Source: Vulcaniibacterium thermophilum (GTDB lineage Bacteria; Pseudomonadota; Gammaproteobacteria; Xanthomonadales; Xanthomonadaceae). From it: a stretch of DNA of 32,000 bases. Position numbers and translations under genes: made by a program. The DNA lies in NCBI RefSeq assembly GCF_007923255.1, contig NZ_VOHJ01000007.1, positions 30,462-62,461 on the forward strand, written 5' to 3'. The stretch's first letter is position 1. The number at the start of each line of letters is the position of its first letter. The notes under the pieces were generated by a model, which worked only from the letters and a program-made list of their open reading frames with translations, was not told the DNA's origin and searched no databases. This document shows, one piece after another, positions 5,263-25,466 of this stretch.

Positions 5263-5421
5263 CGATCCGACTCCATCGCCGGCGACGGCCGGCGCACGAT
5301 CGCAGTCTCCGTTCGCGCGTCCGCCCGCGGCAGAGGCATGAAGTCACCCGACGGGGGTGAGAAAAGTCACCTCCTGCGCCAGCGGCCGCGTACGGCGGTT
5401 GCACGCTCCTATACTCGCCGC

Positions 5422-9692: not shown

Positions 9693-11303
9693 ATGCCGAT
9701 CCTCGCCTCGCAGATCGATCCGCGTTCCCAGGATTTCCGGGACAACGCCGCCTACCACCGCGCGCTCGTCGAGGAGCTCGAGGCGCGGCTCGCGCGCGCC
9801 GCGCAGGGCGGCGGCGAGAAGGCGCGCGCCAAGCACACCGAGCGCGGCAAGCTGCTGGTGCGCGACCGCATCACCGCCCTCCTCGATCCCGGTTCGCCCT
9901 TCCTCGAGATCGCGCCGCTCGCGGCCGAGGGCATGTACGACGACCAGGCGCCCGCGGCCGGCATCGTCTGCGGCATCGGCCGGGTGATTGGGCAGGAAGT
10001 GGTGGTGGTCGCCAACGACGCCACCGTCAAGGGCGGCACCTACTTCCCGATGACGGTGAAGAAGCACCTGCGCGCGCAGGAGATCGCGCGCGAGAACCGC
10101 CTGCCCTGCGTCTACCTGGTCGATTCCGGCGGCGCGTTCCTGCCGCTGCAGGACGAAGTGTTTCCGGACAAGGAGCACTTCGGCCGCATCTTCTACAACC
10201 AGGCGCGGCTGAGCGCGGAGAACATCCCGCAGATCGCGGTGGTGATGGGCTCCTGCACCGCGGGAGGCGCGTACGTGCCGGCGATGTGCGACGAGAGCGT
10301 GATCGTCAAGGAACAGGGCACGATCTTCCTCGGCGGCCCGCCGCTGGTGAAGGCGGCGACCGGCGAGGTGGTGGACGCCGAGGCGCTCGGCGGCGCCGAC
10401 GTGCACACCAGCGTGTCCGGCGTGGCCGACCACTTCGCCGAGGACGATCGGCATGCGCTCGCGATCGCGCGCGAGATCGTCGGCCATCTCAACCGGCGCA
10501 AGCAGCCGCCGGTGGCGATCCGCGAGGCGCGCGAACCGCTCTACCCGGCCGAGGAGCTGTACGGCATCGTGCCGAAGGACATGCGCCGGCCGTTCGACAT
10601 CCGCGAGGTGATCGCGCGCATCGTCGACGGCAGCGAGTTGCAGGAATTCAAGGCGCGCTACGGCAAGACGCTGGTCACCGGCTTCGCGCACATCCACGGC
10701 TACCCGGTCGGCATCGTCGCCAACAACGGCATCCTGTTCTCCGAGAGCGCGCTCAAGGGCGCGCACTTCATCGAGCTGTGCAACCAGCGCGGCATCCCGT
10801 TGGTGTTCCTGCAGAACATCACCGGCTTCATGGTGGGCCGCAAGTACGAGAACGCCGGCATCGCCAAGGACGGGGCCAAGATGGTGACCGCGGTGGCGTG
10901 CTCGCACGTGCCGAAGTTCACCGTGGTGATCGGCGGCAGCTTCGGCGCCGGCAACTACGCGATGTGCGGCCGCGCGTACGGCGCGCGCTTCCTGTGGATG
11001 TGGCCGAACGCGCGCATCTCGGTGATGGGCGGCGAGCAGGCGGCGAGCGTGCTCGCCACCGTCAAGCGCGATGCGCTGGAAGCCGCCGGCAAGACCTGGA
11101 GCGCGGAGGAGGAAGAGGCGTTCAAGGCGCCGATCCGCGAGCAGTACGAGACGCAGGGCAATCCGTACTATGCCACCGCGCGGCTGTGGGACGACGGCAT
11201 CATCGACCCGGCCGACACGCGCCGGGTGCTGGGCCTTGCCCTGTCGGCCGCGCTCAACGCGCCGATCGAAGGGCCGTCGCGCTTCGGGGTGTTCCGCATG
11301 TGA
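9693..11303 (+). CDS. liuB: Methylcrotonyl-CoA carboxylase beta subunit (carboxyltransferase; LiuB/MccB)
   Basis: 536 aa from ATG 9693. The upstream part of track ORF 9330.. overlaps the lipoprotein gene and terminator. Two-domain carboxyltransferase with stretches such as [38 protein letters not shown] and [15 protein letters not shown]. Confidence 0.9.
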
Positions 11304-11520
11304 CCTGGCGGTGGCGGCCGGCGCGGGGCCGGGCCGCACCGCAGCGGGGGCGCCACAGGCGACGACCGCGCGTCCACCCGGCCGTGCGGTCGAGTACCGG
11401 CGCGCCAAACGTGATCGCCCGATGAACGTCGGGCCCGCGGCGCGGAGGAACGGCGACCGCCGTCCCAACCGCGCATGGCCGCGCTGCTAGCCTCGACGGA
11501 CGCTCCCTCACGAGACCGTC

Positions 11521-12054
11521 ATGGCCATCTTCAATCCCCCGTCGAACCCGAAGAAGGACGCCGCCCCCGCCCCGCCCGCCAGCGCGCTGCCCAGGGAACC
11601 GGACCCGCGCACCGAGATCGGGTTCGGCCCGCCCGTCGCCGCGCCGCCGGGACCTTCGGCCGCGCCCGCCGCGACCGCGCGCGCCGCCGAGCCGGCCGCC
11701 AAGGAATCGCTGATCGCCGCGGACCTGACCATCGAGGGCCGGATCCAGGGCGCCGGGCATGTGCGCATCGCCGGACGGTTCAAGGGCGACATCACGGTCG
11801 ACGGCGACCTGACCATCGAGGTGGGCGCCAAGGTCGACGGCGGCGTGCGCGCGCGCCGCGTCACCGTGGCGGGCGAGCTGGAAGGCAACGTCGAAAGCGC
11901 GCAGCGCGTCGAGCTGCTGGAGACCGGCGTGATCGCCGGCGACGTCAAGGCCGGCACGGTGGTGGTCGCCTCCGGCGCGCGCATGCGCGGTCACGTCGAG
12001 TTCGGCTGGGAAGACGGCGCGCCCGCAAGGCCGGAGCACGGCAGCCGCGAATGA
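11521..12054 (+). CDS. Bactofilin (DUF583 polymer-forming cytoskeletal protein)
   Basis: 177 aa. A Pro/Ala-rich N-terminal tail is followed by bactofilin beta-helix repeats (IEGRIQGAGHVRIAGRFKGDITVDGDLTIEVGAKVDGGVRARRVTVAGELEGNVES...GVIAGDVKAGTVVVASGARMRGHVEF). Confidence 0.85.
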   Translation: MAIFNPPSNPKKDAAPAPPASALPREPDPRTEIGFGPPVAAPPGPSAAPAATARAAEPAAKESLIAADLTIEGRIQGAGHVRIAGRFKGDITVDGDLTIEVGAKVDGGVRARRVTVAGELEGNVESAQRVELLETGVIAGDVKAGTVVVASGARMRGHVEFGWEDGAPARPEHGSRE

Positions 12055-12416
12055 ACGCCGGACGCACCGCCGCGCCCGGCGCCACGCGCGTGTGTCCGCA
12101 TTGCCGGGCGACGATCCTGGAGAGCGCGGCGGTGTGTCCGGCCTGCCGGCATCACCTGCGCTTCGAGGATGCCGCCGCCCGCACCGCCGCCCGGCGCACG
12201 ACGCCGCTTCAGGTGGAAGGCACGCTGTGCGGCCCGTCCGGCGAGCGGGCGTGGGAGTACACCGTGGTGGTGGCGATCCGCGACGAGCGCGGCGAGGAGA
12301 TCGCGCGCCACGTGGTGGGCGTGGGCGCGCTGGCGGAGGGCGAATCGCGCACCTTCTCGCTGGGCGTGGAGGCGGTCGAAGTGGCGGCGCCGGCGCGGGT
12401 GCGACGCCGGCGGTGA
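12051..12416 (+). CDS. Zinc-ribbon protein with C-terminal beta-rich domain, coupled to bactofilin
   Basis: 121 aa in the frame of track ORF 11475..12416. ATG 12051 overlaps the bactofilin stop (ATGA). CPHC-x10-CPAC zinc ribbon, then a roughly 70-aa beta-rich segment (WEYTVVVAIRDERGEEIARHVVGVGALAEGESRTFSLGVEA) and an Arg-rich tail. Family not assigned. Confidence 0.6.
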   Translation: MNAGRTAAPGATRVCPHCRATILESAAVCPACRHHLRFEDAAARTAARRTTPLQVEGTLCGPSGERAWEYTVVVAIRDERGEEIARHVVGVGALAEGESRTFSLGVEAVEVAAPARVRRRR

Positions 12417-12442
12417 GCGCGGCGGGCCTCGCCCGGCCGCGC
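12417..12442. terminator. GC-rich hairpin between convergent genes (possible bidirectional terminator)
   Basis: GCGCGGCGGGC (12417-12427), loop CTC, GCCCGGCCGCGC (12431-12442) with one bulged G. No U-tract, so this is weak evidence. Confidence 0.25.
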
Positions 12443-12463
12443 GGCACGCGCTCCGGGGCCCGC

Positions 12464-13519
12464 TCAGCCCCCGAACGCCGCGCGCATCGCCGCCTCGTCG
12501 GGACGTTCGATCACCCCGCGCTCGGTGACGATGGCGTCGATCAGCGTGTGCGGCGTCACGTCGAACACCGGATTCCAGGCGCCGACCCGCTCGGCCGCCG
12601 TACGCACGCCGCCCAGCGAGAACAGCTCGGCGGCATCGCGCTCCTCGATGTGGATGGCGTCGCCGTCGGGGGTGTGCATGTCGACCGTTGACGAAGGCGC
12701 CACCACCATGAAACGCACGCCGTGGTGACGCGCGGCGATCGCGAGCTGGTAGGTGCCGATCTTGTTGGCGGTATCGCCGTTGGCGCAGATGCGGTCGGCG
12801 CCGACGATCACCCACCGCACCGCGCCGGTCTTCATCAGGTGGGACGCGGCGGCGTCGGCGATCAGCACCGGCGCGATGCCGTCCTGCTGCAGCTCCCAGA
12901 CCGTCAGCCGCGCGCCCTGCAGCCACGGCCGCGTCTCGCCCGCGTACACGCGCTCGATGCGGCCCTGCGCCACGCCGGCGCGGATCACGCCGAGCGCGGT
13001 GCCGAAGCCGGCGGTGGCCAGCGAGCCGGTGTTGCAGTGGGTGAGCACGCCGCTGCCGGGTTCGATCAGCGCCGCGCCGAGCGCGCCCATGCGGCGGTTG
13101 GCGGCGAGATCCTCCTCGGCGATCGCCTGCGCCTCGCGCTCGAGCACGCCGCGCCAGTCGGCGCCCGCGCCCTGCAGCGCGCGCCGCATGCGGGCGAGCG
13201 CCCACGCCAGATTCACCGCGGTGGGCCGCGCCGCGTTGAGGCGCTGCATCGCCGGTTCCAGCGCGACCGCCGCCTGCGCGCCGTCGGCGGCCTCCACGCG
13301 GCGCGCGGCCAGCACCACGCCCCAGGCCGCGGCGATGCCGATCGCCGGCGCGCCGCGCACCACCAACTGACGGATCGCCTCGGCGACGCCGTCGCTGTCC
13401 TCGTAGCGCAGATGCTTCACCTCGAACGGCAGCGTGCGCTGGTCCAGCAGTTCGAGGGCCTCGCCCGTCCAGCGGATCGGGCGGATGCGGTCGTAGCGGT
13501 CGAAATCGAAAGCGTCCAT
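12464..13519 (-). CDS. mtnA: S-methyl-5-thioribose-1-phosphate isomerase
   Basis: 351 aa from ATG at 13519. The track ORF extension to 14080 overlaps the DUF3011 gene and is Arg/Ala-rich junk. MtnA/eIF-2B-like hallmarks: [74 protein letters not shown]. Confidence 0.9.
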
Positions 13520-13577
13520 CGCGCCATTGTAGGCGCGTGCCTCCGTGCGCCCCGCGACGATGGACGCGGGCCGGCCG

Positions 13578-14357
13578 TCAGCGGTCTTCCTCGACCCAGG
13601 GGCCGCTCTCCTCCTCCGGCGCGCCCCACGGGCGGGGGTGGTCGTCGCGCCAGCCCCATCCGCCGCGCCGGCCGACCTCGAACTCGCCGCGGCAACCGTG
13701 ATCGACCCAGATCCCGCCGCGCTGCACGCCCCACGAGCGGCCTTCGATGCACGGGCTGCGCGAGAACTGCCGCACCAGCCGCACGCCGCCGCGGATATCG
13801 ACCGGACAGAAGCGCGAGCGGTTGTCGCCCGACTCGCAGCGCACCAGGCGCGCCGGTTCCTGCCAGCCGCGCCGCACGCGGAACTCGGCGCGGCAGCCGC
13901 CGGCGACCCAGACGCCGCGGCGGTCCTGGCCCCAGGTCTGGCCCTCGATGCACGGCGATGCGGAAAGCTGGCGCAGCAGGCGCACGCCGCCGCGGGCGCT
14001 GACCGGGCAATGCGTCCAGCGGTTGTTGCGCGACTCGCAACGCACCACGTCGCCGCCGCCCCAGCCCGGGGATCCGCCATAGCCGATCACGAACTCGGCG
14101 CGGCAGCCGTCGTCCACCCACACGCCGTCCCGGCGCACGCCCCAGGAGCGGCCTTCCACGCACGGCGTGTCCGACAGTTGGCGCGCCAGCCGCACGCCGC
14201 CGCGGGTGTCGGCGGGGCAGAAGCGCGAACGGTTGTCGTCGGACTCGCAGCGCACGACGTTCTCGCCGTAGTGCTGACCGGCGTACTGCGCGCGCGCGGC
14301 CGGCGCGCAGGCGGCCGCCGCGAACGTGGCGATCATCAGGACCCAAGCGGCACGCAT
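13578..14357 (-). CDS. Secreted Cys-rich DUF3011-type protein with three tandem modules
   Basis: 259 aa from ATG at 14357, preceded by a GGGAG Shine-Dalgarno. Signal peptide [23 protein letters not shown]. Three roughly 65-aa repeats of RCES..NR..CP....GGVRL.RQ.S..PC.EG..WG....G.WV..GCR.EF, then an acidic Trp/Pro-rich tail. Confidence 0.8.
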
Positions 14358-14463
14358 CGTCGTCGCTCCCAGGTTGGACACCGCCGAATCTAGCCCGTGC
14401 AAATGAACCCCGTCCGAAAACTTCACGGGCGGGTAACGCGCGTGCAGTCGCCGTTCACCCGGC

Positions 14464-15465
14464 TCAGGCGCGGTCGAACGCGAAGGCAAGCACGTCGGCG
14501 ATGCGGTCGGTGTCCAGCATCGCCATCAGCAGGCGGTCGACGCCGAGCGCGACCCCCGCACAGGCCGGCATGCCCGCTTCCAGCGCGGCCAGCAGACGCT
14601 CGTCCTGCGGCGGCGCAACATGACCGCGCGCCAGACGCGTGGCGCGGTCGCGCTCGAAGCGCGCGCGTTGCTCGGCCGCATCGAGCAGCTCGTGATAACC
14701 GTTGGCGAGTTCCAGCGGACCGAGGTAGAGCTCGAAACGCTCGGCGACCGGCGGATCGCCGTGGCGGATACGCGCCAGCGCGCATTGCGAAGCGGGGTAG
14801 TCGATCACCGCCAGCAGTTGCTCGCGCGGGAACGCCGGCTGGATGCGATGGGTCATCAGCAGGTCGAGCCAGTCGTCGCGGGCCAGTCCGTCGGGATCGA
14901 TGCGGACGTCGCCGAGCGCCGCGCGCAGTTCGGCTTCGCTGGCGGTGAAGGGGTCGAGGCCGAGTGCGTCGCGGTAGAGATCGCGGAACGTGGTCTCGCG
15001 CAGGCGAGCCTCGCGCCCGACCAGCGCCAGCGCGGCCTGCACCAGTTCGGCGGTCTCGCGCGCCAGCCGGCGGTGGTCCCAGCCGACGCGGTACCACTCC
15101 AGCATGGTGAACTCGGGGTTGTGCCGGCCGCCGGCCTCGCCGTCGCGGAACACGCGGCCCAGCTCGTAGCAGTCGCCGATGCCGGCGGCGAGCAGACGCT
15201 TGAGCGCGAACTCCGGCGAGGTGCGCAGCCAGCGCGTGCGCGGCGCGCCGTCGGTGCGACCGGAGAACTCCAGCGAGAACGAGGCGATGTTGGGGTCGGT
15301 GTTGCCGGCCATCGACAGGACCGGCGTCTCCACTTCCAGCACGCCGCGTCGGGCGAAGAAGTCGCGGATCGACGCGTTGAGGCGGGCGCGCAGGCGGAGC
15401 GCTTCGACGGGCGCCGAGGGGCGCCAGTCGGCGGGCGGTGCGTCGCCGGCGCTTGTCCCCCTCAC
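14464..15465 (-). CDS. epmA: Elongation factor P--(R)-beta-lysine ligase (EpmA/PoxA/GenX); start uncertain
   Basis: Collinear with E. coli EpmA from DWRPSAPVEALRLRARLNASIRDFFARRGVLEVETPVLS onward. Class-II aaRS motifs FRDGEAGGRHNPEFTMLEWY and GVALGVDRLLM. There is no stop upstream in this frame. The preferred start is GTG at 15465, preceded by GGAGAGGG, both inside a REP arm. The alternative is ATG at 15585. Confidence 0.85.
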   Translation of the reverse strand: MRGTSAGDAPPADWRPSAPVEALRLRARLNASIRDFFARRGVLEVETPVLSMAGNTDPNIASFSLEFSGRTDGAPRTRWLRTSPEFALKRLLAAGIGDCYELGRVFRDGEAGGRHNPEFTMLEWYRVGWDHRRLARETAELVQAALALVGREARLRETTFRDLYRDALGLDPFTASEAELRAALGDVRIDPDGLARDDWLDLLMTHRIQPAFPREQLLAVIDYPASQCALARIRHGDPPVAERFELYLGPLELANGYHELLDAAEQRARFERDRATRLARGHVAPPQDERLLAALEAGMPACAGVALGVDRLLMAMLDTDRIADVLAFAFDRA

Positions 15466-15645
15466 CCCGGCCCTCTCCCCCGCAAGCGGGGGAGAGGGGG
15501 ACGAAGCGGCGAGGCGAGAAGACGAAACGTCGCTGGCGCTTGCCCCCCTCACCCCAGAGGAGCCTTCAAAGCACTCGCGTTCCATGCGACGCCCGCCGTA
15601 TCCCCCTCTCCCCCGCTTGCGGGGGAGAGGGCCGGGGTGAGGGGG
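15457..15645. repeat. 189-bp REP/MITE-like unit: two 45-bp perfectly inverted arms flanking a 99-bp core
   Basis: Arm A (15457-15501) ccccctcaccccggccctctcccccgcaagcgggggagaggggga is the exact reverse complement of arm B (15601-15645). Each arm contains its own 11-bp-stem palindrome (ccctctccccc gcaagc gggggagaggg). A partial third copy, cccccctcacccc, lies at 15543-15555. Confidence 0.9.
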
Positions 15646-15648
15646 GCG

Positions 15649-15972
15649 CGCCTGCAAGGCGCGCCAGATCGCATCGACCACCGCCTCCGGGTGCTGCAAC
15701 ACCTCGTGATCCCAGAAGCGCAGCACCCGCCATCCAGCCGCTTCAAGCCGCGCGGTACGTCGGCGATCGGCCGCCGCATGGCCAGCCTCCGCATGCTGTC
15801 CACCGTCGAGCTCCACTGCGAGCGCCCTTTCGACGCAAGCGAAATCGAGGATGAAGCCCAACGCGCGGTGCTGCCGCCGGAACTTCGCGCCAAGCTGATG
15901 GTTGCGCAGATGCCGCCACAGCAGTGCCTCGGCGTCGGTCTGTTCCTTGCGCAATCGTCTGGCGTGATCCAT
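15649..15972 (-). CDS. DUF559 (Vsr-like) endonuclease-domain ORF; 3' end undefined because it has no stop before epmA
   Basis: ATG at 15972, 20 nt after the ligA stop, with GAGG/GGGAG upstream. The 108-aa domain is MDHARRLRKEQTDAEALLWRHLRNHQLGAKFRRQHRALGFILDFACVERALAVELDGGQH...WRVLRFWDHEVL. Coordinates cover the recognisable domain only. The frame continues open through the REP unit into epmA. Confidence 0.7.
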
Positions 15973-15992
15973 CTCCCTCGCCTCGGCCGGAT

Positions 15993-18086
<2,094 letters not shown>

Positions 18087-18178
18087 TTAACGCGGGCCGC
18101 GCACCCTCGGGTCGGCCCCAGGTGGCCGCGGCGCGTGCGGCGGGCGAGCCTGAGCGCGGAAGCGACGGAGTCGAGGCC

Positions 18179-19483
18179 ATGACGCAACTGGCGCGGATCG
18201 GCGGCAGCACGCCGCAGTTCCACCGGTGGGACGATCTTCTGCGCGACGCCGCGGGCGATGCCGGCGCGCTGCTGGCCGCGTTGCAGCAGGCGCCGGCCGC
18301 GGACCGCGCGGGGCTGGCGGCACGCACGCTCGATGCCCTTAGCGATGCGCAGTTGTCCGCGCTCGCGGCGCAACCGCGCGGCGCCGAGACCCTGCGCGCC
18401 CTGCGCGACGCGGCGGCGGACGCGCCCGCCGGCGCGCCGGGCGCGGATGCGCGCGTGGCACGTGCGGACGGCGCGCTGCGGCAGGCCGACGAGGCCCGGT
18501 TGGCGAAGGAGAAACAGGAGCTGCTGCTCGATCTGGGCCAGATCGCGCTCGACATCGTCGGCATCTTCGAACCTACGCCGTTCGCCGATCTGACCAACGC
18601 CGGCATCTCGATCTGGCGCGGCAACTGGCTCGATGCCGGGCTGTCGGCCGTGGGCGTGATCCCCTACCTCGGCGATGCGGCCAAGCTGGGCAAGCTCGGC
18701 AAGTTCGGCAAGGTGATCGAACGGGCGGTCGAACTGGCGAAACTCGACCCCGGCTTCGCCGACCAGCTTCGGCCCGCGCTGAGGAAGATCAAGGACGCCA
18801 TCGACGCCGCGCCGGTCGATTCCCTGCCCGGCCCGGCGCGCGATGCCGTGCGGTCGATGAAGGGCAAGCTGGACGAGTTCTTCTCCGGCGCGGCCAAGAC
18901 CCCCACGACCGGTCCGCGAATGGCGGATGGCACGCCGCTTCCGGCCAACGTGAAGTTGGATCTGCGTGGAACGAGCGTGATCGATCCCGCTGCCGCTAGC
19001 CGCTTGACGGACGCCTCACGTTTGCCGCAGGTGAGCAATGGTAAGGTCGAGGTGACCCACGGACCCGAAGCAGGGACCACGAAGACCGTGATTCTTTCGA
19101 AGGAGGCGGGGCAGACGGTGACCAAGGACGGTTACACCATCACCAAGGACGCGAACGGCTTCCCGATCTTCAACAGCAGGTTCGACACCTTCGTTCCCGA
19201 TCATCTGCTGGGCACGGGCAAGGAGGCCGATCATTTCCGCTACGCCAACGAGCGTCTAGGCACTCTACTGCGTCAGAACCCCGAGCTCGCCAAAGACATG
19301 GGGCTCGACGCGGCGCAAGTGAAGCATCTGACCAAGCAGCCGCCCTCCTCGGCGCCGCCACCGGGTTTGACGTGGCACCATCACCAGGACGTCGGCCGCA
19401 TGCAGCTGGTCGTGCGTGCCGAGCACCAGGCCCATGTGCCGCACACCGGTGGCATGTCGATCTGGGGCGGTGGCTACAAGTAG
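18179..19483 (+). CDS. Polymorphic-toxin-like protein: unassigned N-terminus + PT-TG-like segment + C-terminal WHH-type HNH/EndoVII nuclease
   Basis: 434 aa from ATG 18179, with GGAG upstream; the track start at 18122 is a GTG extension. The C-terminus reads GFPIFNSRFDTF...DHFRYANERLG...GLTWHHHQDVGRMQLVVRAEHQAHVPHTGGMSIWGG, which matches the WHH-clade pattern. The mid region reads DIVGIFEPTPFADLTNAGISIWRGNWLDAGLSAVGVIPYLGDAAKLGKLGK and is pre-toxin-like. No signal peptide. Followed by immunity-type genes. Confidence 0.8.
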   Translation: MTQLARIGGSTPQFHRWDDLLRDAAGDAGALLAALQQAPAADRAGLAARTLDALSDAQLSALAAQPRGAETLRALRDAAADAPAGAPGADARVARADGALRQADEARLAKEKQELLLDLGQIALDIVGIFEPTPFADLTNAGISIWRGNWLDAGLSAVGVIPYLGDAAKLGKLGKFGKVIERAVELAKLDPGFADQLRPALRKIKDAIDAAPVDSLPGPARDAVRSMKGKLDEFFSGAAKTPTTGPRMADGTPLPANVKLDLRGTSVIDPAAASRLTDASRLPQVSNGKVEVTHGPEAGTTKTVILSKEAGQTVTKDGYTITKDANGFPIFNSRFDTFVPDHLLGTGKEADHFRYANERLGTLLRQNPELAKDMGLDAAQVKHLTKQPPSSAPPPGLTWHHHQDVGRMQLVVRAEHQAHVPHTGGMSIWGGGYK

Positions 19484-19516: not shown

Positions 19517-19972
19517 ATGACCATCGACTGGGAAGAGTATCTCGACGTTCCGCCGGCGAGCGATGCCGACATCGCTCGCGTGGAGCACACGTTGGGCGTC
19601 ACGCTGCCGGATGATTTCCGCGATGCCTTGCGCCGGCATCAGGGCCGCCTGCCGACACGGAACGTCCTGCATGCCGACGCAATGAATCCCGTGACGTTCG
19701 GACCGCTGCTGCACGTCAGCAGCACGGCAGATGGCTATGCGGCCGACTACGAGATGACGCGGGTGGCGGCCGTGTGGCGGCGGTTGTATCCGAAGGTCGT
19801 GCCGATCGCCGACAACGGTGGCGGCAGTTGCTTCGCCTACGACTACGCCGCTGGAGAAAGGCAGCCGCCGATCGTTTTTCTCAACCACGAAGCCGAGCCC
19901 ACCGACCCGGCAGGAAAAATCCGCGTGGCGGATTCGTTTGCCGAGCTTCTTGCGAAGCTTCGCGAACAGTGA
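19517..19972 (+). CDS. SMI1/KNR4 (SUKH-1) family protein, putative cognate immunity protein
   Basis: 151 aa. SUKH-1 hallmarks: IARVEHTLGVTLPDDFRDALRRHQG near the N-terminus and VVPIADNGGGSCFAYDY near the C-terminus. Starts 34 nt after the toxin stop. Confidence 0.85.
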   Translation: MTIDWEEYLDVPPASDADIARVEHTLGVTLPDDFRDALRRHQGRLPTRNVLHADAMNPVTFGPLLHVSSTADGYAADYEMTRVAAVWRRLYPKVVPIADNGGGSCFAYDYAAGERQPPIVFLNHEAEPTDPAGKIRVADSFAELLAKLREQ

Positions 19973-19999: not shown

Positions 20000-20356
20000 A
20001 TGTCCGAGCAGAGGATTTCACCCGAGTTGAAGCCGAGCGATGTGCGGTTGGAGAGAATCGGCGCGATCCTCGGAACGCTCCTGCCTGCAGAGGCGGACTG
20101 GATCACGGCCGAAGCGACCGTCGGCGACGACTGGTCGGAAGTCCGCTTTACCTACGGCGGCGCCGATGGAACGCCGCGGTATTTCTCGATGGCCGAGCAT
20201 CCGGCGACCGCGGCCGGCGATATCGGCGATGTCCTCATCGACATGCGCGAGCGGTTGCGGCAGGACGGCGGTGAGGTGTGGAACGGTTGCCGCTTCACCT
20301 TGCAGCGCGATGGGCGCTTCTCGCTCGACTTCGCCTTCGACCAGGCGACTTCGTAG
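20000..20356 (+). CDS. YezG/DUF600-like immunity-type protein
   Basis: 118 aa with GGAG 4 nt before the ATG. The pattern LPAEADWITAEATVGDDWSEVRFTY ... GGEVWNGCRFTLQRDGRFSLDFAFD mirrors the DUF600/YezG layout as I recall it (P.eW...a.v.dd.sev.F.y ... eW....l.l...G.f..df.y). Needs HMM confirmation. Confidence 0.65.
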   Translation: MSEQRISPELKPSDVRLERIGAILGTLLPAEADWITAEATVGDDWSEVRFTYGGADGTPRYFSMAEHPATAAGDIGDVLIDMRERLRQDGGEVWNGCRFTLQRDGRFSLDFAFDQATS

Positions 20357-20378
20357 CGGGCGCATGCAGGAGGCCCGC

Positions 20379-20810
20379 GTGAAGTCGTCCGATCTCATCC
20401 TCGCCTCGATCGCGGAGCGCCTGGCGACCGATCCGAAGGTCAACGCCGCGCCGTGGGATCAGTACGCACTCGTCGCCTGGTACGGCGACGGCGTGAGCAA
20501 GCTCAACGGGTTCCGCTACCGCGGCGATGCGCCAGGCGAGCCTGCCACTCCGGCCTCGTTCGAGATCGAGGACCTGCTGGACGATCTGCGTGCGGCAACG
20601 CAGGTGGAAGGCAAGGGGCCGTGGCGCGCGTGCGTGGTTCGGCTGGATCGCGCCGATGGGAAGGTGACGGTGGATTTCGAGTACGAGCGGCCCGAGGTGT
20701 GGGAGGTCACGCCGGCGACGGTGCGCCGGGTCGCGGAGCGCGCGAGATCCGCGGACGCCCTCACCCCAACCCCTCGTCCGCAGCACGGGAGAGGGGCCAC
20801 GTTGCCGTAG
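20379..20810 (+). CDS. Second YezG/DUF600-like immunity-type protein (diverged); C-terminus encoded by a REP copy
   Basis: In the frame of track ORF 20040..20810. The preferred start is GTG 20379, 6 nt after AGGAGG; ATG 20364 is the alternative. Layout PWDQYALVAWYGDGVSKLNGFRY ... GPWRACVVRLDRADGKVTVDFEYE parallels the previous ORF. The last roughly 17 codons (ALTPTPRPQHGRGATLP) lie in REP sequence. Confidence 0.55.
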   Translation: MKSSDLILASIAERLATDPKVNAAPWDQYALVAWYGDGVSKLNGFRYRGDAPGEPATPASFEIEDLLDDLRAATQVEGKGPWRACVVRLDRADGKVTVDFEYERPEVWEVTPATVRRVAERARSADALTPTPRPQHGRGATLP

Positions 20811-21012
20811 GTTGGGCTGAGCGCAGCGAAGCCCAACATCGCGCGGCCTCGTACATCAAACATCGCTTCAGGTGCAGACGAGCCATGCGCGCCTGCGGCG
20901 CGCGCCCTCACCCCGACCCCTCTCCGGCCCGCCGCAGCGCGGCGGGCGTTCGTCGGCGCGCGAGCCTGCGGCTTGCAAGCGCGCCTCCCCACCCCGCACG
21001 CGGGAGAGGGGC
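20757..21012. repeat. REP cluster at the island/zipA junction (two repeat families)
   Basis: CCCTCACCCC-type copies at 20757-20797 and 20904-20925, with a GGGAGAGGGG partner at 21002-21011; this is the same family as 15457-15645. An 8-bp-stem hairpin GTTGGGCT-N11-AGCCCAAC lies at 20811-20837. A perfect 9-bp hairpin GCCCGCCGC-AGC-GCGGCGGGC lies at 20927-20947. Confidence 0.75.
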
Positions 21013-21062: not shown

Positions 21063-21788
21063 TTACCAGCGGGTGGGTCTGGTGAGCGGCGGGGCTTCGC
21101 GCTGGCGGTCGTAGGCGCGCATCTCGTCGCGGATGTGGGCGATGCGCTGGCGGCCGAGGGCGTTGCGCTGGTCGTCGAGCACCACGCCGTCGAGCAGCTC
21201 GGCCATGCGCTGGGCGGTCGGCAGCATCGTTTCCCAGGCGTCGAGTGCGGAGATCGGCGCCGGCAGCGTGAGAAAGAACGCCAGCGCGGGCGTCTCCAGC
21301 GCCTGGATGTTGGCCATGTCGAAGCTGCCCGGCTTCATGATGTTGGCGACGCTGAAGATCGGGCCGCGCTCGGGGTGGTTCTCGATCAGGCGGTGGAACA
21401 CGCCCATATGGCCGTACACCAGACCGGCCTTCTCGGCGGCGACCACGATGTCGGGGCCATGCAGCTTGCGGCCGGCGCGCGCGGCGAGGTAGACGGTGAC
21501 GATCTTGTCGAACTCCTCGCTGACGCGGCGGCCGAGTTCGCTGTGCGGCGGCGCCGGGCGCTCGCGCGGCGCGAGGTCGAGTTCGGGCTGGGCGATGGCG
21601 GGTTCGGCGCCGATCTCGCGTTCGAGCTGCTCGGCGAGCGTCGGCTCGTCGGCCGCCTCCGCGCGCGTCTCGCGCGGCATGCGGCGGCCCTGCCCCGGCT
21701 TGCGCGGGCGACCGAAGAAGTAGATCGCGCCGATCAGCAGCAGGCCGGCGACGAGGATGCCCAGCCGCAGCAGCATCATGTCAGACAT
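21063..21788 (-). CDS. zipA: Cell division protein ZipA
   Basis: 241 aa. N-terminal TM anchor LRLGILVAGLLLIGAIYFF, a charged/Pro-rich linker, and a C-terminal FtsZ-binding domain (VTVYLAARAGRKLHGPDIVVAAEKAGLVYGHMGVFHR...FFLTLP). A strong GAGGAGG Shine-Dalgarno lies between the smc stop and this ATG. Confidence 0.9.
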   Translation of the reverse strand: MSDMMLLRLGILVAGLLLIGAIYFFGRPRKPGQGRRMPRETRAEAADEPTLAEQLEREIGAEPAIAQPELDLAPRERPAPPHSELGRRVSEEFDKIVTVYLAARAGRKLHGPDIVVAAEKAGLVYGHMGVFHRLIENHPERGPIFSVANIMKPGSFDMANIQALETPALAFFLTLPAPISALDAWETMLPTAQRMAELLDGVVLDDQRNALGRQRIAHIRDEMRAYDRQREAPPLTRPTRW

Positions 21789-21805
21789 CGGATCCTCCTC
21801 GGCCC

Positions 21806-24800
21806 TCAGGCGGCGCCGGCCAGGCGCGTGGCCTCGGCCAGATCGACCGACACCAGGCGGCTCACGCCGGGCTCGCGCATGGTCACGCCCATGAGCTGGC
21901 GCGCCGCCTCCATGGTGGCCTTGTTGTGGGTCACGAACAGGAACTGTACCTGTTCACTCATCTCGGACACCATCGCGCAGAAGCGGCCGACGTTGGCCTC
22001 GTCGAGCGGCGCGTCGACCTCGTCGAGCAGACAGAACGGCGCCGGATTCAGGCGGAAGATCGCGAACACCAGCGCCACCGCGGTCATCGCCTTCTCGCCG
22101 CCGGACAGCAGCGAGATGTTGGACACCCGCTTGCCCGGCGGGCGCGCCATGATCGCAACGCCGGTGTCGAGCAGGTCCTCGCCGGTCAGCTCCAGATAGG
22201 CGTGGCCGCCGCCGAACAGGCGCGGATACAGCTCCTGGATGCCGGCGTTGACGCGGTCGAAGGTGTCCTTGAAGCGGCCGCGCGTCTCGCGGTCGATCTT
22301 GCGGATCGCATCCTCGAGCGTCTCCAGCGCGGTGGTGAGGTCGGCGTGCTGGGCGTCCAGGTACTCCTTGCGCTGCGCGGCCTCGGCGTGTTCCTGGATC
22401 GCCGCGAGGTTGACCGGCTCGAGCCGGCGCAGGCGCGCATCGAGGTCGGCGACCGCCTTTTCCCAGGTCGCCGCGTCGGCGTCGTCGGACAGGCCGTTGA
22501 GCACGTCATCGAGCACGAAGCCGCCTTCCTGGATCGCCTGCGTCAGGCCTTCGGCCTTCAGCATCAGCGCCTGCAGTTCCAGCCGGCGCTGACCGATCGC
22601 CTCGCGCTGCTGGATCGCCTGCTCGTCGCGCTGCTGGCGGATCTGCTCGAAGCGGCGCAGCTCGTGGTCGATGCCGTCGAGCGCGCTGCGCGCGGACGCG
22701 AGGTGCTGCTCGGCCAGCACGCGCTGCTCCAGCGCGACCTGCCGCTGCTGCTCCAGCTCGCGCACCGGCGCGTCGCCCTCGGCGAGCTGGCGGCCGAGTT
22801 CCTCCAGCCGCAGGTCGAGCTGGCCGCGCTGGCCGCCCATGCGTTCCAGCGCCTGCGACAGCGCGGCGATCTGGGTGCGCTGCGATTCCAGCGTGAGCGC
22901 GAGCGCATGCGCGGCGTCGCGCACCTCGCGCGCGGCGGTGCGGGCATGGTCGCGGGCTTCGCCGAGCGTGCGGCGCTCGGCTTCGAGCCGCTGGCGGGTC
23001 TCTTCCAGCTCGGCCATGCGCGTGACCGCGTCCTCCTGCCGCGCGCGGGCCTCGCGCGCCTGCTCGCGGGCGGTCTCCAGCGTGGCCGCGAGCTGCGCGA
23101 GTTCGGCATCGATCTTCTCGATGCGTCCGCGCGCGGAATCGATGCGGCCCTGCTGGCTCTGGATCTGCCCGGCCAGTTCCGACACCCCGCGGTGCGCCAG
23201 GTACAGGCTGCGCTGGGCGTCCTCGCGCTGCTGCTCGCTGGCGAGCAGGCGGTCGCGCAGTTCGGTCAGGCGCGCTTCGAGCTCGCGCTCGCGCGCCTGC
23301 AGCGATTCGATCTCGGCGCGCAGGGCGTGGATCTCTTTTTCGCGCAGCAGCGCGCCGGAGGTCGGCGCGGTGGCGCGCGACACCCGCAGCCAGCCGCTGC
23401 CGAGGCGCTCGCCGGAGCGGGTGATGACCGACTCGTGCGGCCCGAGCGACGGCAGCAGCGCGCGCGCGGCGGCGAGGTCGTCGGCCACGTGCAGCGGCGC
23501 CAGCAGCGCGCGGATCGCGGCCGGGCCCTGCACTTTCGATGCGAGCGACGTGGCGGAATACGTCGCGGCGTCGCGCTGCGGCGACACCAGCGCCAGACGG
23601 CCATCGGCCAGTTCGGCCAGCGCATCGACCAGCGTCTCCGGCGCATCGACCAGCACCGCCTCGATCAGTTGGCCGAGTGCGGCCTCCACCGCCCCTTCCC
23701 AGCCGGCCTCGACGTCGAGCGCCTCGCCGACGCGGGTGGCGTTATCGAGCCCGCGCGCCTGCAGCCAGGCCAGCGCGGCGCCCTGCTCCTGGCCGAGTGC
23801 GGCATGCTGCAGCGTCTCCAGCGAGGACAGCCGGCCGCGCGCGGCCTGCGCCTGCTTGCGCACGTCGGCCAGCTCCTGCTGGGTCGCGCGCTGCTGCTCC
23901 TGCACCTCGGCGACCGCGCGCTTGCGGGCTTCCAGGTCCTCGGTCAGCACCTCGAGCGCGGCCTTGCGCTCCTCGTGCTGAAGCTGCAGTTCGGCGAACG
24001 CTTCGCTGAGCGCGGTGAGGTCGAGCCCGGCCCGCTCGGCGGTGAGCGCCTCGCGGCGGCGTTCGGCGTCCAGCGCCTGGCGGTCGAGGTGCTCGATGCG
24101 GGTGCGCTCGACGTCGGCCGCACGCGCGGCCTCGGCCTGCGCGCGGCTGTGCGCCTCCCACCGCTGCTGCCAGTCGGCCAGCTTCGCCTCGGCCTCGCGC
24201 AGCGCCTCCTGGCGCGCCTCGTCCTCCTCGCGCAGCTGCTCCAGGCGCGGTTCGTCGCGCTCGACCGCCTCGCGCAGCACCTGCAGCTTGGTCGCGTCGC
24301 TGCCGATGTGCTGGCCGAGTTCGGCCAGCGCCTGTTCGGCCTCCTCGCGCGCGCGCTGCAGGCGCGCGGTCATCTCGCGCTGGTGCTGGATCTGCTGTTC
24401 GATACGCGCCAGCGTGGCGCTGACCTCGTAGCTGGCGGCCTGCGCCTTGCTCAGCGCCTCGGCGGCCTCGTCGCGGCGGGCGCGGCCGGTTTCCAGTTCG
24501 CGCTCGGCCTCGCGCTGCTCGGCGATCAGCTGCTGCAGGCGGGTCTCCTGCTGCGAGAGCTTCTCGCGCTGGGCCTGCAACTTCGCATCGAGCGCGCGGT
24601 ATTCCAGCGCCTTCCACTCCGCATCCTTGACCTTGCGCTCGGCCTGCAGCGCCTGGTACTGCTCGGCCTGGCGCGCCTGGCGGCGCAGGTGTTCGAGCTG
24701 CTTGCCGACTTCCTCGCGCAGGTCGTTGAGGCGGTCGAGGTTCTCGCGGGTGTGGCGGATGCGGGTCTCGGTCTCCTTGCGGCGCTCCTTGTACTTGGAG

Positions 24801-25309
24801 ATGCCGGCCGCTTCTTCGAGGTAGACGCGCAGTTCCTCGGGCTTGGCCTCGATGATCTGGCTGATCATCCCCTGCTCGATGATCGAGTAGCTGCGCGGAC
24901 CGAGGCCGGTGCCGAGGAACAGGTCGGTGATGTCGCGCCGGCGGCAGCGCGTGCCGTTGAGGTAGTAGTTGCTCTGGCCATCGCGGCCGACCGTGCGCTT
25001 GACCGAGATCTCGTTGAACGCGGCGTACTCGCCGGTGATCGTGCGGTCGGAGTTGTCGAAGATCAGCTCGACGGTGGCCTGCGACACCGGCTTGCGGGTG
25101 GTGCTGCCCGCGAAGATCACGTCGGTCAGCGAATCGCCGCGCAGGCGGCTGGCCGAGCTTTCGCCCATCACCCAGCGCACCGCGTCGATGATGTTCGACT
25201 TGCCGCAGCCGTTGGGCCCGACGATGCCGGTCATGTTGGTCGGCAGGTGCAGCGTGGTCGGATCGACGAACGATTTGAACCCGGACAGCTTGATGGTGGA
25301 CAGACGCAT
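21806..25309 (-). CDS. smc: Chromosome partition protein Smc
   Basis: 1167 aa from ATG at 25309; the track start at 25399 adds an Arg-rich extension. Walker A GPNGCGKSN, long coiled coils, a hinge, signature LSGGEKA and Walker B FCLLDEVDAPLD. Confidence 0.95.
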   Translation of the reverse strand: MRLSTIKLSGFKSFVDPTTLHLPTNMTGIVGPNGCGKSNIIDAVRWVMGESSASRLRGDSLTDVIFAGSTTRKPVSQATVELIFDNSDRTITGEYAAFNEISVKRTVGRDGQSNYYLNGTRCRRRDITDLFLGTGLGPRSYSIIEQGMISQIIEAKPEELRVYLEEAAGISKYKERRKETETRIRHTRENLDRLNDLREEVGKQLEHLRRQARQAEQYQALQAERKVKDAEWKALEYRALDAKLQAQREKLSQQETRLQQLIAEQREAERELETGRARRDEAAEALSKAQAASYEVSATLARIEQQIQHQREMTARLQRAREEAEQALAELGQHIGSDATKLQVLREAVERDEPRLEQLREEDEARQEALREAEAKLADWQQRWEAHSRAQAEAARAADVERTRIEHLDRQALDAERRREALTAERAGLDLTALSEAFAELQLQHEERKAALEVLTEDLEARKRAVAEVQEQQRATQQELADVRKQAQAARGRLSSLETLQHAALGQEQGAALAWLQARGLDNATRVGEALDVEAGWEGAVEAALGQLIEAVLVDAPETLVDALAELADGRLALVSPQRDAATYSATSLASKVQGPAAIRALLAPLHVADDLAAARALLPSLGPHESVITRSGERLGSGWLRVSRATAPTSGALLREKEIHALRAEIESLQARERELEARLTELRDRLLASEQQREDAQRSLYLAHRGVSELAGQIQSQQGRIDSARGRIEKIDAELAQLAATLETAREQAREARARQEDAVTRMAELEETRQRLEAERRTLGEARDHARTAAREVRDAAHALALTLESQRTQIAALSQALERMGGQRGQLDLRLEELGRQLAEGDAPVRELEQQRQVALEQRVLAEQHLASARSALDGIDHELRRFEQIRQQRDEQAIQQREAIGQRRLELQALMLKAEGLTQAIQEGGFVLDDVLNGLSDDADAATWEKAVADLDARLRRLEPVNLAAIQEHAEAAQRKEYLDAQHADLTTALETLEDAIRKIDRETRGRFKDTFDRVNAGIQELYPRLFGGGHAYLELTGEDLLDTGVAIMARPPGKRVSNISLLSGGEKAMTAVALVFAIFRLNPAPFCLLDEVDAPLDEANVGRFCAMVSEMSEQVQFLFVTHNKATMEAARQLMGVTMREPGVSRLVSVDLAEATRLAGAA

Positions 25310-25466
25310 GCGGCGGACGGCCCCTCGCCGGCGCGGGTCGCGCCGTCGGTGAGAAACGGGATCAACTTGATCGCCCAACCCCCTGATCGGACTGGGCACG
25401 ACGGCCGCGGCTGCACCGCGGTTTCACGCGAGTATACCGGCGGGCCCGACCCTGCGCGGACGCGGT

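Follow-up and report, generated by a model that had tools for sequence, protein, structure and literature searches.

A WHH nuclease toxin gene with a SUKH-1 immunity gene in Vulcaniibacterium thermophilum belongs to an unannotated polymorphic-toxin family linked to type III secretion in relatives

The DNA analyzed is a 32,000-nucleotide stretch of the Vulcaniibacterium thermophilum genome (contig NZ_VOHJ01000007.1, positions 30,462 to 62,461), referred to here as the window. Between ligA and zipA it carries a cassette consisting of a nuclease toxin gene, an adjoining immunity gene and two further genes of immunity type, all on the plus strand. The GC content of the cassette is 0.64, as opposed to 0.71-0.72 in its flanks, and the cassette is bordered by REP-like elements, with one REP-like motif at 20740-20775. 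The toxin gene (18179..19483) opens with an ATG at 18179, closes with a stop codon ending at 19483 and encodes 434 amino acids, in agreement with a preliminary description of this DNA. By the ORF list and Pfam, its product is composed of a leader, a conserved N-terminal module (hereafter the N-module), a linker and a WHH nuclease. A Shine-Dalgarno-like GGAG was read in the sequence at 18167..18170, 8 nt upstream of the ATG. A GTG at 18122 offers an alternative, longer start; the public annotation places the start at the ATG at 18179, and this record and the GGAG together support the 434-residue form. Comparison with the protein database showed the product to be 100% identical to P0001, named by NCBI as “HNH endonuclease [Vulcaniibacterium thermophilum]”. 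Promoter and terminator scans of the 71% GC window DNA returned nothing useful.

Residues 291-434 (19049..19480, plus strand) form the toxin domain, which was delimited using Pfam, alignment A2, AF2 and Foldseek and comprises a beta-rich pre-toxin part and a WHH beta-beta-alpha-metal core. The preliminary description had assigned this end of the protein to the WHH type of HNH/EndoVII nucleases and had proposed a profile search and an AlphaFold model with Foldseek as checks; both confirm a predicted WHH-clade HNH/EndoVII His-Me finger nuclease. Pfam WHH (PF14414) matched residues 391-431 at 3.6e-14 (52.6 bits; gathering cut-off 25.1) and Colicin-DNase (PF12639) matched residues 323-424 at 6.8e-17 (62.5 bits; cut-off 25). 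W399, H400, H401, H402, H416 and H422 are invariant among the 20 diverse homologues of alignment A2. The C-terminal string quoted earlier is present in the protein, and the numbering then given for H400 and H401 agrees with the translation, which reads W399 H400 H401 H402. The AF2 model of the toxin domain (pLDDT 88.9) contains strands at 397-401 and 407-412, followed by a helix at 413-418, a predicted beta-beta-alpha fold whose best Foldseek match, and only significant PDB fold, was the RhsP-WHH crystal structure (8bd1_A; E 1.3e-4, prob 1.00). The same chain was matched by sequence profile at E 5e-4 with approximately 23% identity. With a dN/dS of 0.17-0.18, the toxin domain is under purifying selection.

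The domain is homologous to the toxin domains of the Rhs-WHH/SUKH-1 systems (V. parahaemolyticus RhsP, PDB 8BD1/8H8A-C, and YPO3609-YPO3610 of Y. pestis) and keeps their W-H-H...H motif; a crystal structure of RhsP-WHH with its immunity protein exists (8BD1). The Y. pestis Rhs pair YPO3609/YPO3610 was shown experimentally to be a WHH DNase with SUKH-1 immunity, encoded, as in the window, with the SUKH-1 gene directly 3' of the toxin, and the metal-dependent DNase activity of WHH homologues is lost on His mutation (PMC13515810). By homology to these tested WHH/SUKH pairs, the window toxin would be a DNase that its SUKH-1 protein neutralizes. An earlier remark that no member of this exact architecture has been characterized stands insofar as we found none, but the WHH plus SUKH-1 pair has been characterized in the Rhs architecture (PMC13515810). 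Rhs-WHH toxins form the C-terminal ends of Rhs proteins, which are T6SS-associated (RhsP), whereas the window protein has an unannotated N-module and is without Rhs repeats, PAAR and the DPxGL motif. The WHH C-terminal domain is also held in common with the myxobacterial SitA5 outer-membrane-exchange toxins (48-53% identity over approximately 29% of the query; P0118 bears the SitA5 family name). This likeness is limited to the toxin domain, however, and the window protein has neither a lipoprotein signal nor an NCBIfam match.

The SUKH-1 gene (19517..19972, plus strand; 151 aa) begins 33 nt after the toxin stop and is, as had been expected of it, the cognate immunity gene. Its product matches SMI1_KNR4 at 5.7e-21 and SUKH_6 at 3.4e-12, SUKH genes 60-61% identical to it follow the WHH orthologues of loci L001/L002, and a SUKH gene also comes next after the WHH members of L084 and L085. 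The reading of these two genes as a nuclease toxin and its immunity is solid. The two genes that follow are likewise of immunity type, as stated previously. The first (20000..20356, plus strand; 118 aa) is YezG-like/DUF600 (PF04634, 1.2e-5, above cut-off), and its product is 53-54% identical to that of the gene immediately following the N-module/Endonuclea_NS_2 toxins of Luteimonas in L003-L007, a gene that is itself YezG-like (1.7e-11). The second (20364..20810, plus strand; 148 aa), identified by homology, enters REP-like sequence at its 3' end and has a YezG-like match of 6e-3, below cut-off. Its product is 25-37% identical to an immunity family whose genes immediately follow those of N-module toxins in 17 loci, in tandem arrays at some of them. 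This gene and its end had been located correctly, but its start had been set at 20379; the ATG at 20364, which is that of the public record and yields the 148 residues, is the better one. Because both products match the cognates of Endonuclea_NS_2 sister toxins, we regard these two genes as orphan immunities. The suggestion that any of the three downstream genes might protect against the window toxin was therefore too broad, since only SUKH-1 co-varies with WHH.

Upstream of the nuclease, the protein is divided into parts of very different character. The leader (residues 1-112; 18179..18514, plus strand), defined by homology and dN/dS, is Ala-rich, has no Sec-type signal and evolves fast: homologous leaders occur only in the closest relatives (33-41% identity), and dN/dS is 0.53-0.62, compared with 0.24-0.27 for the N-module, which relative to those relatives is under purifying selection. 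N-termini in the family as a whole are rich in Ser, Pro and Thr and poor in Leu and Lys, and 217 of 222 members are without a hydrophobic core. Family-wide, this composition and the lack of a Sec signal would fit a T3SS-type signal, although the window N-terminus is atypical. In place of the usual leader motif M-V-[DN]-P, the window protein has MTQLARI, which is similar to the MTEVARN of P0026, a relative encoded in a T3SS operon (see below). The N-module (residues ~113-243, LDLGQIALDIVGIFEPTPFAD...IPYLGDAAKLGKLGK...LP..AR...KLDEFF; 18515..18907, plus strand), presumed to serve in delivery, was defined in alignment A1, and all 15 of the invariant columns of that alignment are conserved in the window protein. 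The N-module had no NCBIfam match at E<=1, and the N-terminal 326 residues had no Pfam match at E<=10. A PDB sequence search with the N-module returned only weak helical noise (best match a designed helical protein, E 4e-4), and Foldseek gave no meaningful fold match. AF2 predicts a confident three-helix bundle at residues 165-240; for the best-conserved motif, at residues 134-167, pLDDT is <50.

The N-module ends in KLDEFF (18890..18907, plus strand), which alignment A1 and the comparison of P0001 with P0005 mark as the swap point of the C-terminal toxin modules. These two proteins are 92% identical over residues 35-242 and share nothing beyond, the break after KLDEFF being abrupt, and GC content drops from 0.68-0.78 upstream of the motif to 0.64 downstream. 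A variable linker follows (residues 244-290; 18908..19048, plus strand; GC 0.64, no profile match). DUF1521 (NopE-type) proteins, which are found as neighbors of family members, self-cleave at a GD'PH motif; the idea that the N-module might be an autoprocessing domain of this kind was set aside, there being no sequence resemblance.

The N-module is common to 95 of the 120 closest homologues, and a profile search with it yielded 3,355 representatives at 50% identity. In 115 of the representatives, at least 13 C-terminal toxin Pfam families occur behind it, the cargo including Endonuclea_NS_2, WHH, CdiA_C, Ntox46, HNH, RNase A, Colicin D and TNT as well as EndoU, REase-5/7, AHH and other domains. 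The family extends over at least five phyla, and its N-module hardly varies between Proteobacteria, Acidobacteriota and Planctomycetota; none of the loci retrieved for it came from Myxococcota. By Pfam, known trafficking domains occur neither in the 115 representatives nor in the window protein. The preliminary description had called the toxin stand-alone, which is apt in that no known trafficking domain is present, but its N-terminal 243 residues hold a module shared by thousands of toxins. Since these toxins are differently tipped, the window protein is a member of a defined, unannotated family with a presumed delivery module. The marks of polymorphic toxins are found together here: a common N-terminal region, swapped C-terminal toxins with a break after KLDEFF, a cognate immunity gene directly downstream and orphan immunity genes. 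A nuclease with a SUKH immunity protein is made of textbook polymorphic-toxin parts and in that respect unremarkable, unlike the conserved, unannotated front half. The earlier interpretation thus holds for the WHH-clade toxin, its SUKH-1 partner and the immunity-type genes downstream, and is revised here as to stand-alone status, the three-immunity reading and prior characterization. The combination of a conserved delivery part with swappable toxins follows the same logic as MIX/FIX (T6SS), LXG (T7SS), XVIPCD (X-T4SS) and VENN-delimited CdiA, and the window family, with KLDEFF as its junction motif, has cognate and orphan immunities as those marker-domain systems do. Nevertheless, the N-module has no sequence or fold relation to any of these, and its linked machinery is a T3SS.

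In 19 of 80 genome loci, in varying gene orders, a family member has T3SS core genes no more than 10 kb away, and a complete T3SS, with operons shared, is the only recurrent genomic partner of the N-module. The 19 loci come from at least six genera, the T3SS-linked genera being Sphingomonas, Novosphingobium, Erythrobacter, Parasphingorhabdus, Caulobacter, Rubrivivax and Ottowia; T3SS genes also adjoin P0067 (Parasphingorhabdus) and P0026. The linked clusters are complete, FliO-containing T3SS of injectisome type, with the family toxins inside or beside them. P0026 pairs WHH with SUKH as the window toxin does and is 39% identical to that toxin over residues 115-432; its gene is the final cistron of the operon sctU-fliO-sctQ-sctRST-luxR. 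The T3SS at the P0026 locus is complete, with secretin, SctD, SctJ, SctN, needle-like proteins and SctV, the last nearer to injectisome SctV than to FlhA. The T3SS-linked loci also hold pairs of antibacterial type, namely lysozyme-LysM-amidase and a class-3 lipase with an ankyrin protein. In a protein-database search with the Rubrivivax SctV, all of the 120 matches listed were at least 65% identical, and the few that were named came from Burkholderiales. No T3SS gene was found nearby in 56 of the 80 loci, including those of all Planctomycetota and Acidobacteriota members, and the N-module may therefore not be tied to one route. Markers of T6SS, T4SS and CDI were absent from the examined loci of the family, and an adjacent chaperone gene was not seen. 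Secretion genes were likewise absent within 10 kb of the window toxin gene and in the seven closest loci, those of the Luteimonas group (L001-L007).

FliO-bearing non-flagellar T3SS operons are reported from Caulobacterales, Sphingomonadales, Burkholderiales, Granulosicoccales and Xanthomonadales, among the last Luteimonas, and the FliO-type T3SS* of Myxococcus xanthus contributes to prey-cell disintegration (PMC12248157). The text consulted names no effectors of FliO-type T3SS, and the supplements searched have no Vulcaniibacterium or Luteimonas entries (PMC12248157). The clusters linked to the family likewise have FliO and a secretin in the same orders, but they also encode needle-like proteins, unlike the FliO-type systems compared (Myxococcus xanthus T3SS*). 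A 2012 survey associated Tox-WHH with T6SS among other routes; T3SS was not one of them, although it is given there for a small number of further toxin domains (PMC3482391).

We give a probability of roughly 0.5 to the locus being an orphan cassette of effector and immunity genes from a family of antibacterial polymorphic toxins with an unannotated N-module, a T3SS being the most likely export route. The leader and N-module would be the delivery part of the toxin, and export would run through a non-flagellar T3SS of injectisome type that contains FliO and whose genes would lie at another place in the genome; in many relatives, such toxins belong to the operons of that T3SS. Judged from those operons, a T3SS would be the best-supported, though unproven, delivery route of the window toxin. 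Once delivered, the WHH domain would act as a His-Me-finger DNase and kill by degrading target-cell DNA, and the co-transcribed SUKH-1 protein would bind and neutralize the toxin inside the producer; the antibacterial role is itself inferred. The two orphan immunities may guard against competitors' Endonuclea_NS_2-bearing alleles of the same family, or alternatively they may be relics from the time before the WHH-SUKH module took the place of an earlier C-terminus at KLDEFF.

The same toxin and immunities could instead make up a soluble bacteriocin resembling colicins or S-pyocins, set free through cell lysis or by some unspecific path. Translocation and receptor binding for uptake into target cells would then be the tasks of the disordered leader and the helical N-module, and a T3SS would provide at most an export step. 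The layout does mirror that of nuclease colicins, with a disordered N-terminus, a helical middle, a C-terminal DNase and an immunity gene downstream, and the Colicin-DNase match and HNH beta-beta-alpha site are held in common with colicin E7/E9 and the S-type pyocins. Most family loci, moreover, are orphan cassettes amid housekeeping genes, and the most conserved N-module motif is predicted to be unstructured alone, as binding epitopes often are. Even so, we consider a bacteriocin rather unlikely. Only the cytotoxic-domain profile matches, Pfam showing none of the translocation or receptor domains of colicins and pyocins, the cassette is without a lysis gene, and the immunity protein is SUKH-1 and not the Im-type four-helix protein of colicins. 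Uptake domains of the colicin type vary with the receptor, whereas the N-module is near-invariant across phyla, and membership in T3SS-cluster operons across six genera would be left unexplained. The lack of secretion genes near the window gene is also what would be seen if the effector were stranded, its matching secretion system lost or never present and the cassette persisting through useful immunity genes or toxin-immunity addiction. The diverged leader motif and leader dN/dS are in keeping with this, and the low GC content and REP-like borders are consistent with acquisition as a mobile cassette. The gene is intact, however, with every invariant position of the N-module and every catalytic residue of the WHH domain kept and the N-module under purifying selection, and P0026 has a similarly non-canonical N-terminus within a T3SS operon. 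We therefore hold it improbable that the toxin is no longer delivered.

Other routes fit the locus less well. Loading on a VgrG/PAAR encoded elsewhere, with the N-module as a new MIX/FIX/RIX-like marker, would agree with the survey's T6SS assignment of Tox-WHH, with the orphan effector-immunity cassettes common in that system and with P0041, in which the WHH unit, including its pre-toxin part, is fused to PAAR. P0041 is without the N-module, though, and PAAR, VgrG, Rhs, MIX and adaptor domains are absent from the 115 family representatives. No T6SS gene was found among the conserved neighbors in the 80 loci or in Pfam-annotated contexts, and neither the window protein nor the annotated neighborhoods show a PAAR/VgrG/Hcp fusion, a MIX/FIX marker or an Rhs cage; a T6SS cargo effector is thus very unlikely. 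That the genes act only inside the producing cell, as a toxin-antitoxin or anti-phage abortive-infection module without export, appears more unlikely still. An HNH nuclease with a tightly linked inhibitor does resemble a toxin-antitoxin pair, and the SUKH protein matches the PADLOC candidate defense family PDC-M40A (5.7e-10), but the toxin itself has no PADLOC match. Its 290-residue non-catalytic N-terminal region and C-terminal swapping are hallmarks of exported polymorphic toxins, as are, in contrast to toxin-antitoxin pairs, the orphan immunity genes and the secretion-system linkage. The reading to which we attach the least weight, as extremely unlikely, is an effector of the bacteria-killing type IV secretion system of Xanthomonadales (X-T4SS). 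Vulcaniibacterium proteins with the XVIPCD T4SS signal are on record, and an X-T4SS therefore probably exists in the genus (PMC11253643). An XVIPCD would sit C-terminally, however, where the window protein has WHH and no other Pfam domain at E<=1. The family also reaches into phyla for which, to our knowledge, no X-T4SS is known. Of CdiA/two-partner secretion there is no sign, the window protein being without a TPS domain, FHA repeats or VENN motif and without a cdiB neighbor.

T3SS injectisomes are regarded as host-directed, and the predation phenotype of the Myxococcus T3SS* is the only hint of an antibacterial T3SS known to us. The linkage of N-module toxins to T3SS operons hints that needle-type secretion systems kill rival bacteria. 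It is possible, and we put this forward tentatively, that the N-module marks the first recognizable effector family of a widespread FliO-type injectisome T3SS aimed at bacteria and not at eukaryotic hosts. If so, type III secretion would join types IV, V, VI and VII as a route for polymorphic antibacterial toxins, and the cassette in Vulcaniibacterium would be an orphan island of effector and immunity genes belonging to that T3SS, its extra immunities recording past encounters with rivals' nuclease alleles. Were the T3SS link to hold, antibacterial T3SS effectors could be recognized from their sequence, effector-immunity pairs would be at hand for testing, and the question of how a needle system might intoxicate a second bacterium could be approached. 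A literature search that lay largely outside subscription journals turned up no published description of an antibacterial T3SS or of the N-module, which is weak evidence of novelty. Because thousands of these toxins are labelled only “HNH endonuclease” or “hypothetical protein”, the N-module merits family definition whatever the route.

As to genomic position, sharing of the ligA-zipA site by the Luteimonas cassettes was ruled out by tblastn; those cassettes adjoin TonB-receptor, regulator and capsule genes.

The proposed open reading frame at 18179-19483 (+ strand) is present as the preliminary description had it, with an ATG start and a GGAG eight bases upstream, and its product of 434 aa matches, at 100% identity, a public protein that bears only the name 'HNH endonuclease'. 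The window is identical to V. thermophilum contig BNCF01000001.1, whose public annotation was used for comparison. The C-terminal string quoted earlier and its H400/H401 numbering were also right, W399-H400-H401-H402 being read in the product. Three ORFs follow on the + strand at gaps of 33, 27 and 7 nt: a SUKH-1 gene (19517-19972; Pfam 5.7e-21), a YezG-like gene (20000-20356; Pfam 1.2e-5) and a gene with a weaker YezG-like match (20364-20810, its start taken from the public annotation). The cassette is flanked by ligA (15993-18077, - strand) and zipA-smc (21063-25399, - strand), window GC is about 0.71, and the annotated neighbourhood holds no secretion genes within 10 kb of the cassette.

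The C-terminal WHH-type HNH nuclease recognized in the preliminary description was borne out by both profiles and a predicted structure. Pfam placed WHH (PF14414) on residues 391-431 (3.6e-14) and Colicin-DNase (PF12639) on residues 323-424 (6.8e-17), each far over its gathering score, and the toxin-domain alignment of 20 diverse homologues is invariant at W399, H400-402, Q403, D404, G406, R407, H416, H422, G424-425, W429 and G430. The AlphaFold2 model built from this alignment is confident (pLDDT 88.9), with a beta-rich N-terminal part followed by the anticipated beta-beta-alpha unit at residues 397-418. Its sole significant PDB fold match, which is the best PDB sequence match too, is 8bd1_A (E 1.3e-4, probability 1.00), the RhsP-WHH/RhsPI toxin-immunity crystal structure. 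In the WHH and SUKH-1 pair YPO3609/YPO3610 of Yersinia pestis, DNA is degraded, SOS is induced, the partner neutralizes the toxin, and toxicity is abolished in a His-to-Ala mutant (PMC13515810). Because of this tested pair and the fold and sequence match to 8bd1_A, DNase activity and SUKH neutralization can be inferred for the window pair on good grounds. We assign the toxin-immunity reading of the locus a probability of about 0.9.

Many of the best 120 homologues align only over residues ~35-250 and have different domains at the C-terminus, and a local search found a conserved, unannotated region (the N-module, residues ~113-243 of the window protein) in 95 of the 120. Its alignment (33 non-redundant copies) has 15 invariant columns and the consensus LDLTQxALDIVGIFEPTPFADGxNxxISxxRGDWLGAGLSAxGxIPYxGDAAKLGKLGKWA...LPxSAR...KLDEFF. 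The N-module had no match in Pfam (E<=10) or NCBIfam (E<=1), weak helical noise only among PDB sequences (best E 4e-4, a designed helical protein) and no match in a fold search (best Foldseek E 0.7). AlphaFold2 predicted a confident three-helix bundle for its second half and pLDDT <50 for its most conserved stretch (PTPFAD...IPYLGD), which, speculatively, may be a motif that folds upon a partner. Searched with a profile, 1.84 billion representatives yielded 3,355 proteins at E<=1e-3, of which 292 reached E<=1e-30; most have 250-500 aa, with the N-module 30-200 residues from the N-terminus. When C-terminal domains were counted by Pfam on 115 family representatives, Endonuclea_NS_2 (23) and WHH (14) led, followed by CdiA_C (4), Ntox46 and HNH (3 each), RNase A, Colicin D, TNT and EndoU (2 each), and Tox-REase-5, Tox-REase-7, AHH and ADP-ribosyl cyclase (1 each); PAAR, VgrG, Rhs, LXG, TPS and XVIPCD were found in none of the 115. 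The homologue P0005 shares 92% identity with the window protein across residues 35-242 and is unrelated directly past KLDEFF, where it carries Endonuclea_NS_2, and GC across this junction goes from 0.68-0.78 to 0.64. One N-module common to many C-terminal toxins and the identity break past KLDEFF uphold the polymorphic-toxin interpretation proposed earlier; N-module proteins are a bona fide polymorphic-toxin family, the presumed delivery part of which had no description in the resources searched.

The window protein keeps every invariant residue, and dN/dS against its two WHH orthologues (L001 and L002) is 0.24-0.27 for the N-module, 0.17-0.18 for the toxin domain and 0.53-0.62 for the leader (residues 1-112), values that are rough with dS near saturation; for these reasons the toxin gene looks functional. 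Two very long family members, P0267 (1181 aa) and P0335 (1165 aa), have the N-module around residue 880; the long region that precedes it contains lysine-rich repeats and a metallopeptidase-like motif, (E/E)xGHAxD. The C-terminal domain of P0267 is Endonuclea_NS_2, and no known trafficking domain was found in this protein.

All three downstream genes had been put forward as candidate immunities. This is supported for SUKH-1, since in both L001 and L002 the WHH orthologue is followed by a SUKH gene 60-61% identical to it, and SUKH genes also follow WHH members in L084 and L085. The other two instead match immunities of sister toxins. The 20000-20356 product is 53-54% identical to that of the gene directly 3' of the Luteimonas N-module/Endonuclea_NS_2 toxins (L003-L007), these counterparts being YezG-like (1.7e-11), and the DUF600 family (Pfam's YezG-like) was tied chiefly to NucA-type toxins in a 2012 survey (PMC3482391). 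The gene at 20364-20810 belongs to an immunity family whose genes come after N-module toxins at 17 loci, in some cases as arrays of seven; in L052 (~10860-14650) and L048 (~3000-5680), about seven paralogues stand in tandem downstream of a single toxin. Because of these matches, only SUKH-1 is expected to neutralize the window toxin, and the other two would be orphan immunities that protect against sister alleles or are remnants of C-terminal displacement. In Luteimonas, a second, shorter toxin (L003:8470-9579; L006:8284-9356; RNAse_A_bac 1.3e-30) lies directly upstream of the main one; all that it keeps of the N-module is weak similarity to the helical half, and a CdiI_2 immunity gene (3.2e-26) follows it.

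As a toxin/immunity locus alone, the cassette is a further representative of already known polymorphic-toxin parts. What the analysis adds is an unannotated, very widespread N-terminal module that is repeatedly linked, at operon level, to a complete FliO-type injectisome, so the locus is a variant on the polymorphic-toxin theme and also a lead towards antibacterial type III secretion. Of 157 N-module genome loci found, 80 were fetched and every neighbouring ORF was clustered; the sole widely conserved neighbours were type III secretion system (T3SS) genes. By Pfam these comprise FlhB/SctU (8.5e-101), FliO, FliN/SctQ, FliP, FliQ, FliR, FHIPEP/SctV (2e-178), SctJ, the SctN ATPase, SctD (YscD/Y4YQ_C), an SctI-like protein, a secretin with a T3S N0 domain, needle-family domains and an SLT transglycosylase. 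T3SS core genes lie within 10 kb in 19 of the 80 loci (tblastn), from Rubrivivax, Ottowia, Sphingomonas, Novosphingobium, Erythrobacter, Caulobacter and an unclassified MAG, and five more Sphingomonas loci have an accessory set of DUF1521/NopE-like protein and lipase. Gene orders differ among lineages, and the linkage is therefore not one inherited arrangement. Separate look-ups found an N-module/HNH toxin and its immunity gene adjoining fliR-fliQ-fliP-fliN-fliO-flhB in Parasphingorhabdus litoris, with SLT-sctV-secretin beyond, and, in GCA_947496975.1, an N-module and WHH twin of the window gene as last cistron of sctU-fliO-sctQ-sctR-sctS-sctT-luxR. This twin shares 39% identity with the window protein over residues 115-432, is followed by SUKH-1, and begins with MTEVARN, resembling MTQLARI in the window.

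Since the linked SctV is nearer to injectisome SctV (496 and 422 bits) than to FlhA (334), SctU is nearer to FlhB and FliO is kept, the linked system is, judging from its genes, an atypical non-flagellar T3SS. FliO-bearing non-flagellar T3SSs are reported in the same taxonomic orders as these loci, and FliO is also reported in the Myxococcus T3SS contributing to the disintegration of prey cells (PMC12248157). No T3SS gene lies within 10 kb of the window cassette or of the seven relatives closest to it, which form the Luteimonas group, and this is also true of 56 of the 80 loci, among them every Planctomycetota and Acidobacteriota member. An orphan effector-immunity island is nothing unusual for a secretion-system effector, and Ottowia flava has one family member within its T3SS cluster and two elsewhere. 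T3SS delivery of the whole family has, in our estimate, close to but not quite even odds, and that of the orphan window copy somewhat lower ones; possibly, the cassette is a stranded effector left without its machine.

A colicin-like soluble bacteriocin is the rival suggested by the overall layout and the Colicin-DNase match, but it leaves T3SS operon membership, the missing lysis gene and the missing uptake domains unexplained. Carriage by a T6SS is suggested only by a PAAR-WHH fusion protein (P0041), which is without the N-module, and neither the 115 architectures nor any neighbourhood supports it. Delivery by an X-T4SS is conceivable in a genus with XVIPCD proteins (PMC11253643), although the window protein has no XVIPCD. 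A purely intracellular toxin-antitoxin or defence role does not fit the modular, exported-toxin anatomy of the family, and the toxin had no PADLOC match.

The T3SS loci hold further antibacterial-type genes. With signals judged by eye, a lysozyme-LysM-amidase protein adjoins a small protein whose N-terminus is hydrophobic, the neighbour of a class-3 lipase is an ankyrin protein with a lipobox-like N-terminus, and a DUF6683 protein has a Sec-type leader; together these resemble the cargo of a bacteria-targeting system. Such antibacterial-looking pairs (lipase/ankyrin; lysozyme, LysM and amidase/CHAP; DUF6683) occur at L024:13372-15148 (-), L047:3505-4980 (-) with L047:2877-3317 (-), L008:11304-13104, L088:444-2597 (-) and L033:4466-5230. 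The N-termini of family members are rich in Ser, Pro and Thr and poor in Leu and Lys; a Sec-type core is absent in 217 of 222, and about 15% start with M-x-[DN]-P. A second family of 473-502 aa in T3SS loci (L024:11526-12947; L078:11471-12979; L080:11500-12942; L071:3629-5077 (-)), with neither N-module nor Pfam match, shares this type of start (M-[AVT]-D-P-[VI]); over its first ~200 residues it has 35-42% identity with long leaders of some toxins (P0280, P0346), and it may be another substrate with the same leader. A DUF1521 (NopE-like) protein (1.5e-66) often lies directly upstream of the N-module toxin (L024:8803-9684; L008:8724-9611; ~8700-9680 in L016, L017, L019, L022 and L023); in Bradyrhizobium and Vibrio coralliilyticus, proteins of the NopE type are known to be T3SS substrates. 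A conserved ~215-230-aa protein is encoded between luxR and the toxin at 17 loci (e.g. L008:5671-6756; L024:6725-7429); it has a T3SS needle-family domain at its C-terminus (PF09392, 7.7e-8 in L008) and N-termini (MSGGFNPV, MSGIFSGG) like those of some toxins, and may serve as a subunit of an extended needle or of a filament.

Within the window, REP-like GC-rich palindromes (CCCTCTCCCCCGCAAGCGGGGGAGAGGG) occur at 15457-15501/15601-15645, 20984-21011 and 20740-20775/20887-20922; they include a perfect 45-nt inverted pair and flank the ligA-toxin block on both sides, and one copy covers the 3' end of the fourth cassette gene, which thus has a REP-derived tail. Directly downstream of ligA, a DUF559 endonuclease-like ORF (15646-15972, - strand; 2.7e-35) lacks its own stop codon and runs in frame via REP-like sequence into an epmA-like gene, as part of a 1386-aa ORF (14464-18624, - strand); the public record has an unannotated gap here. 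A DUF3011 protein (13578-14489, - strand) contains three internal cysteine-motif repeats (VRCES..NR...CP...GGVRL.RQLS..PC.EG..WG).
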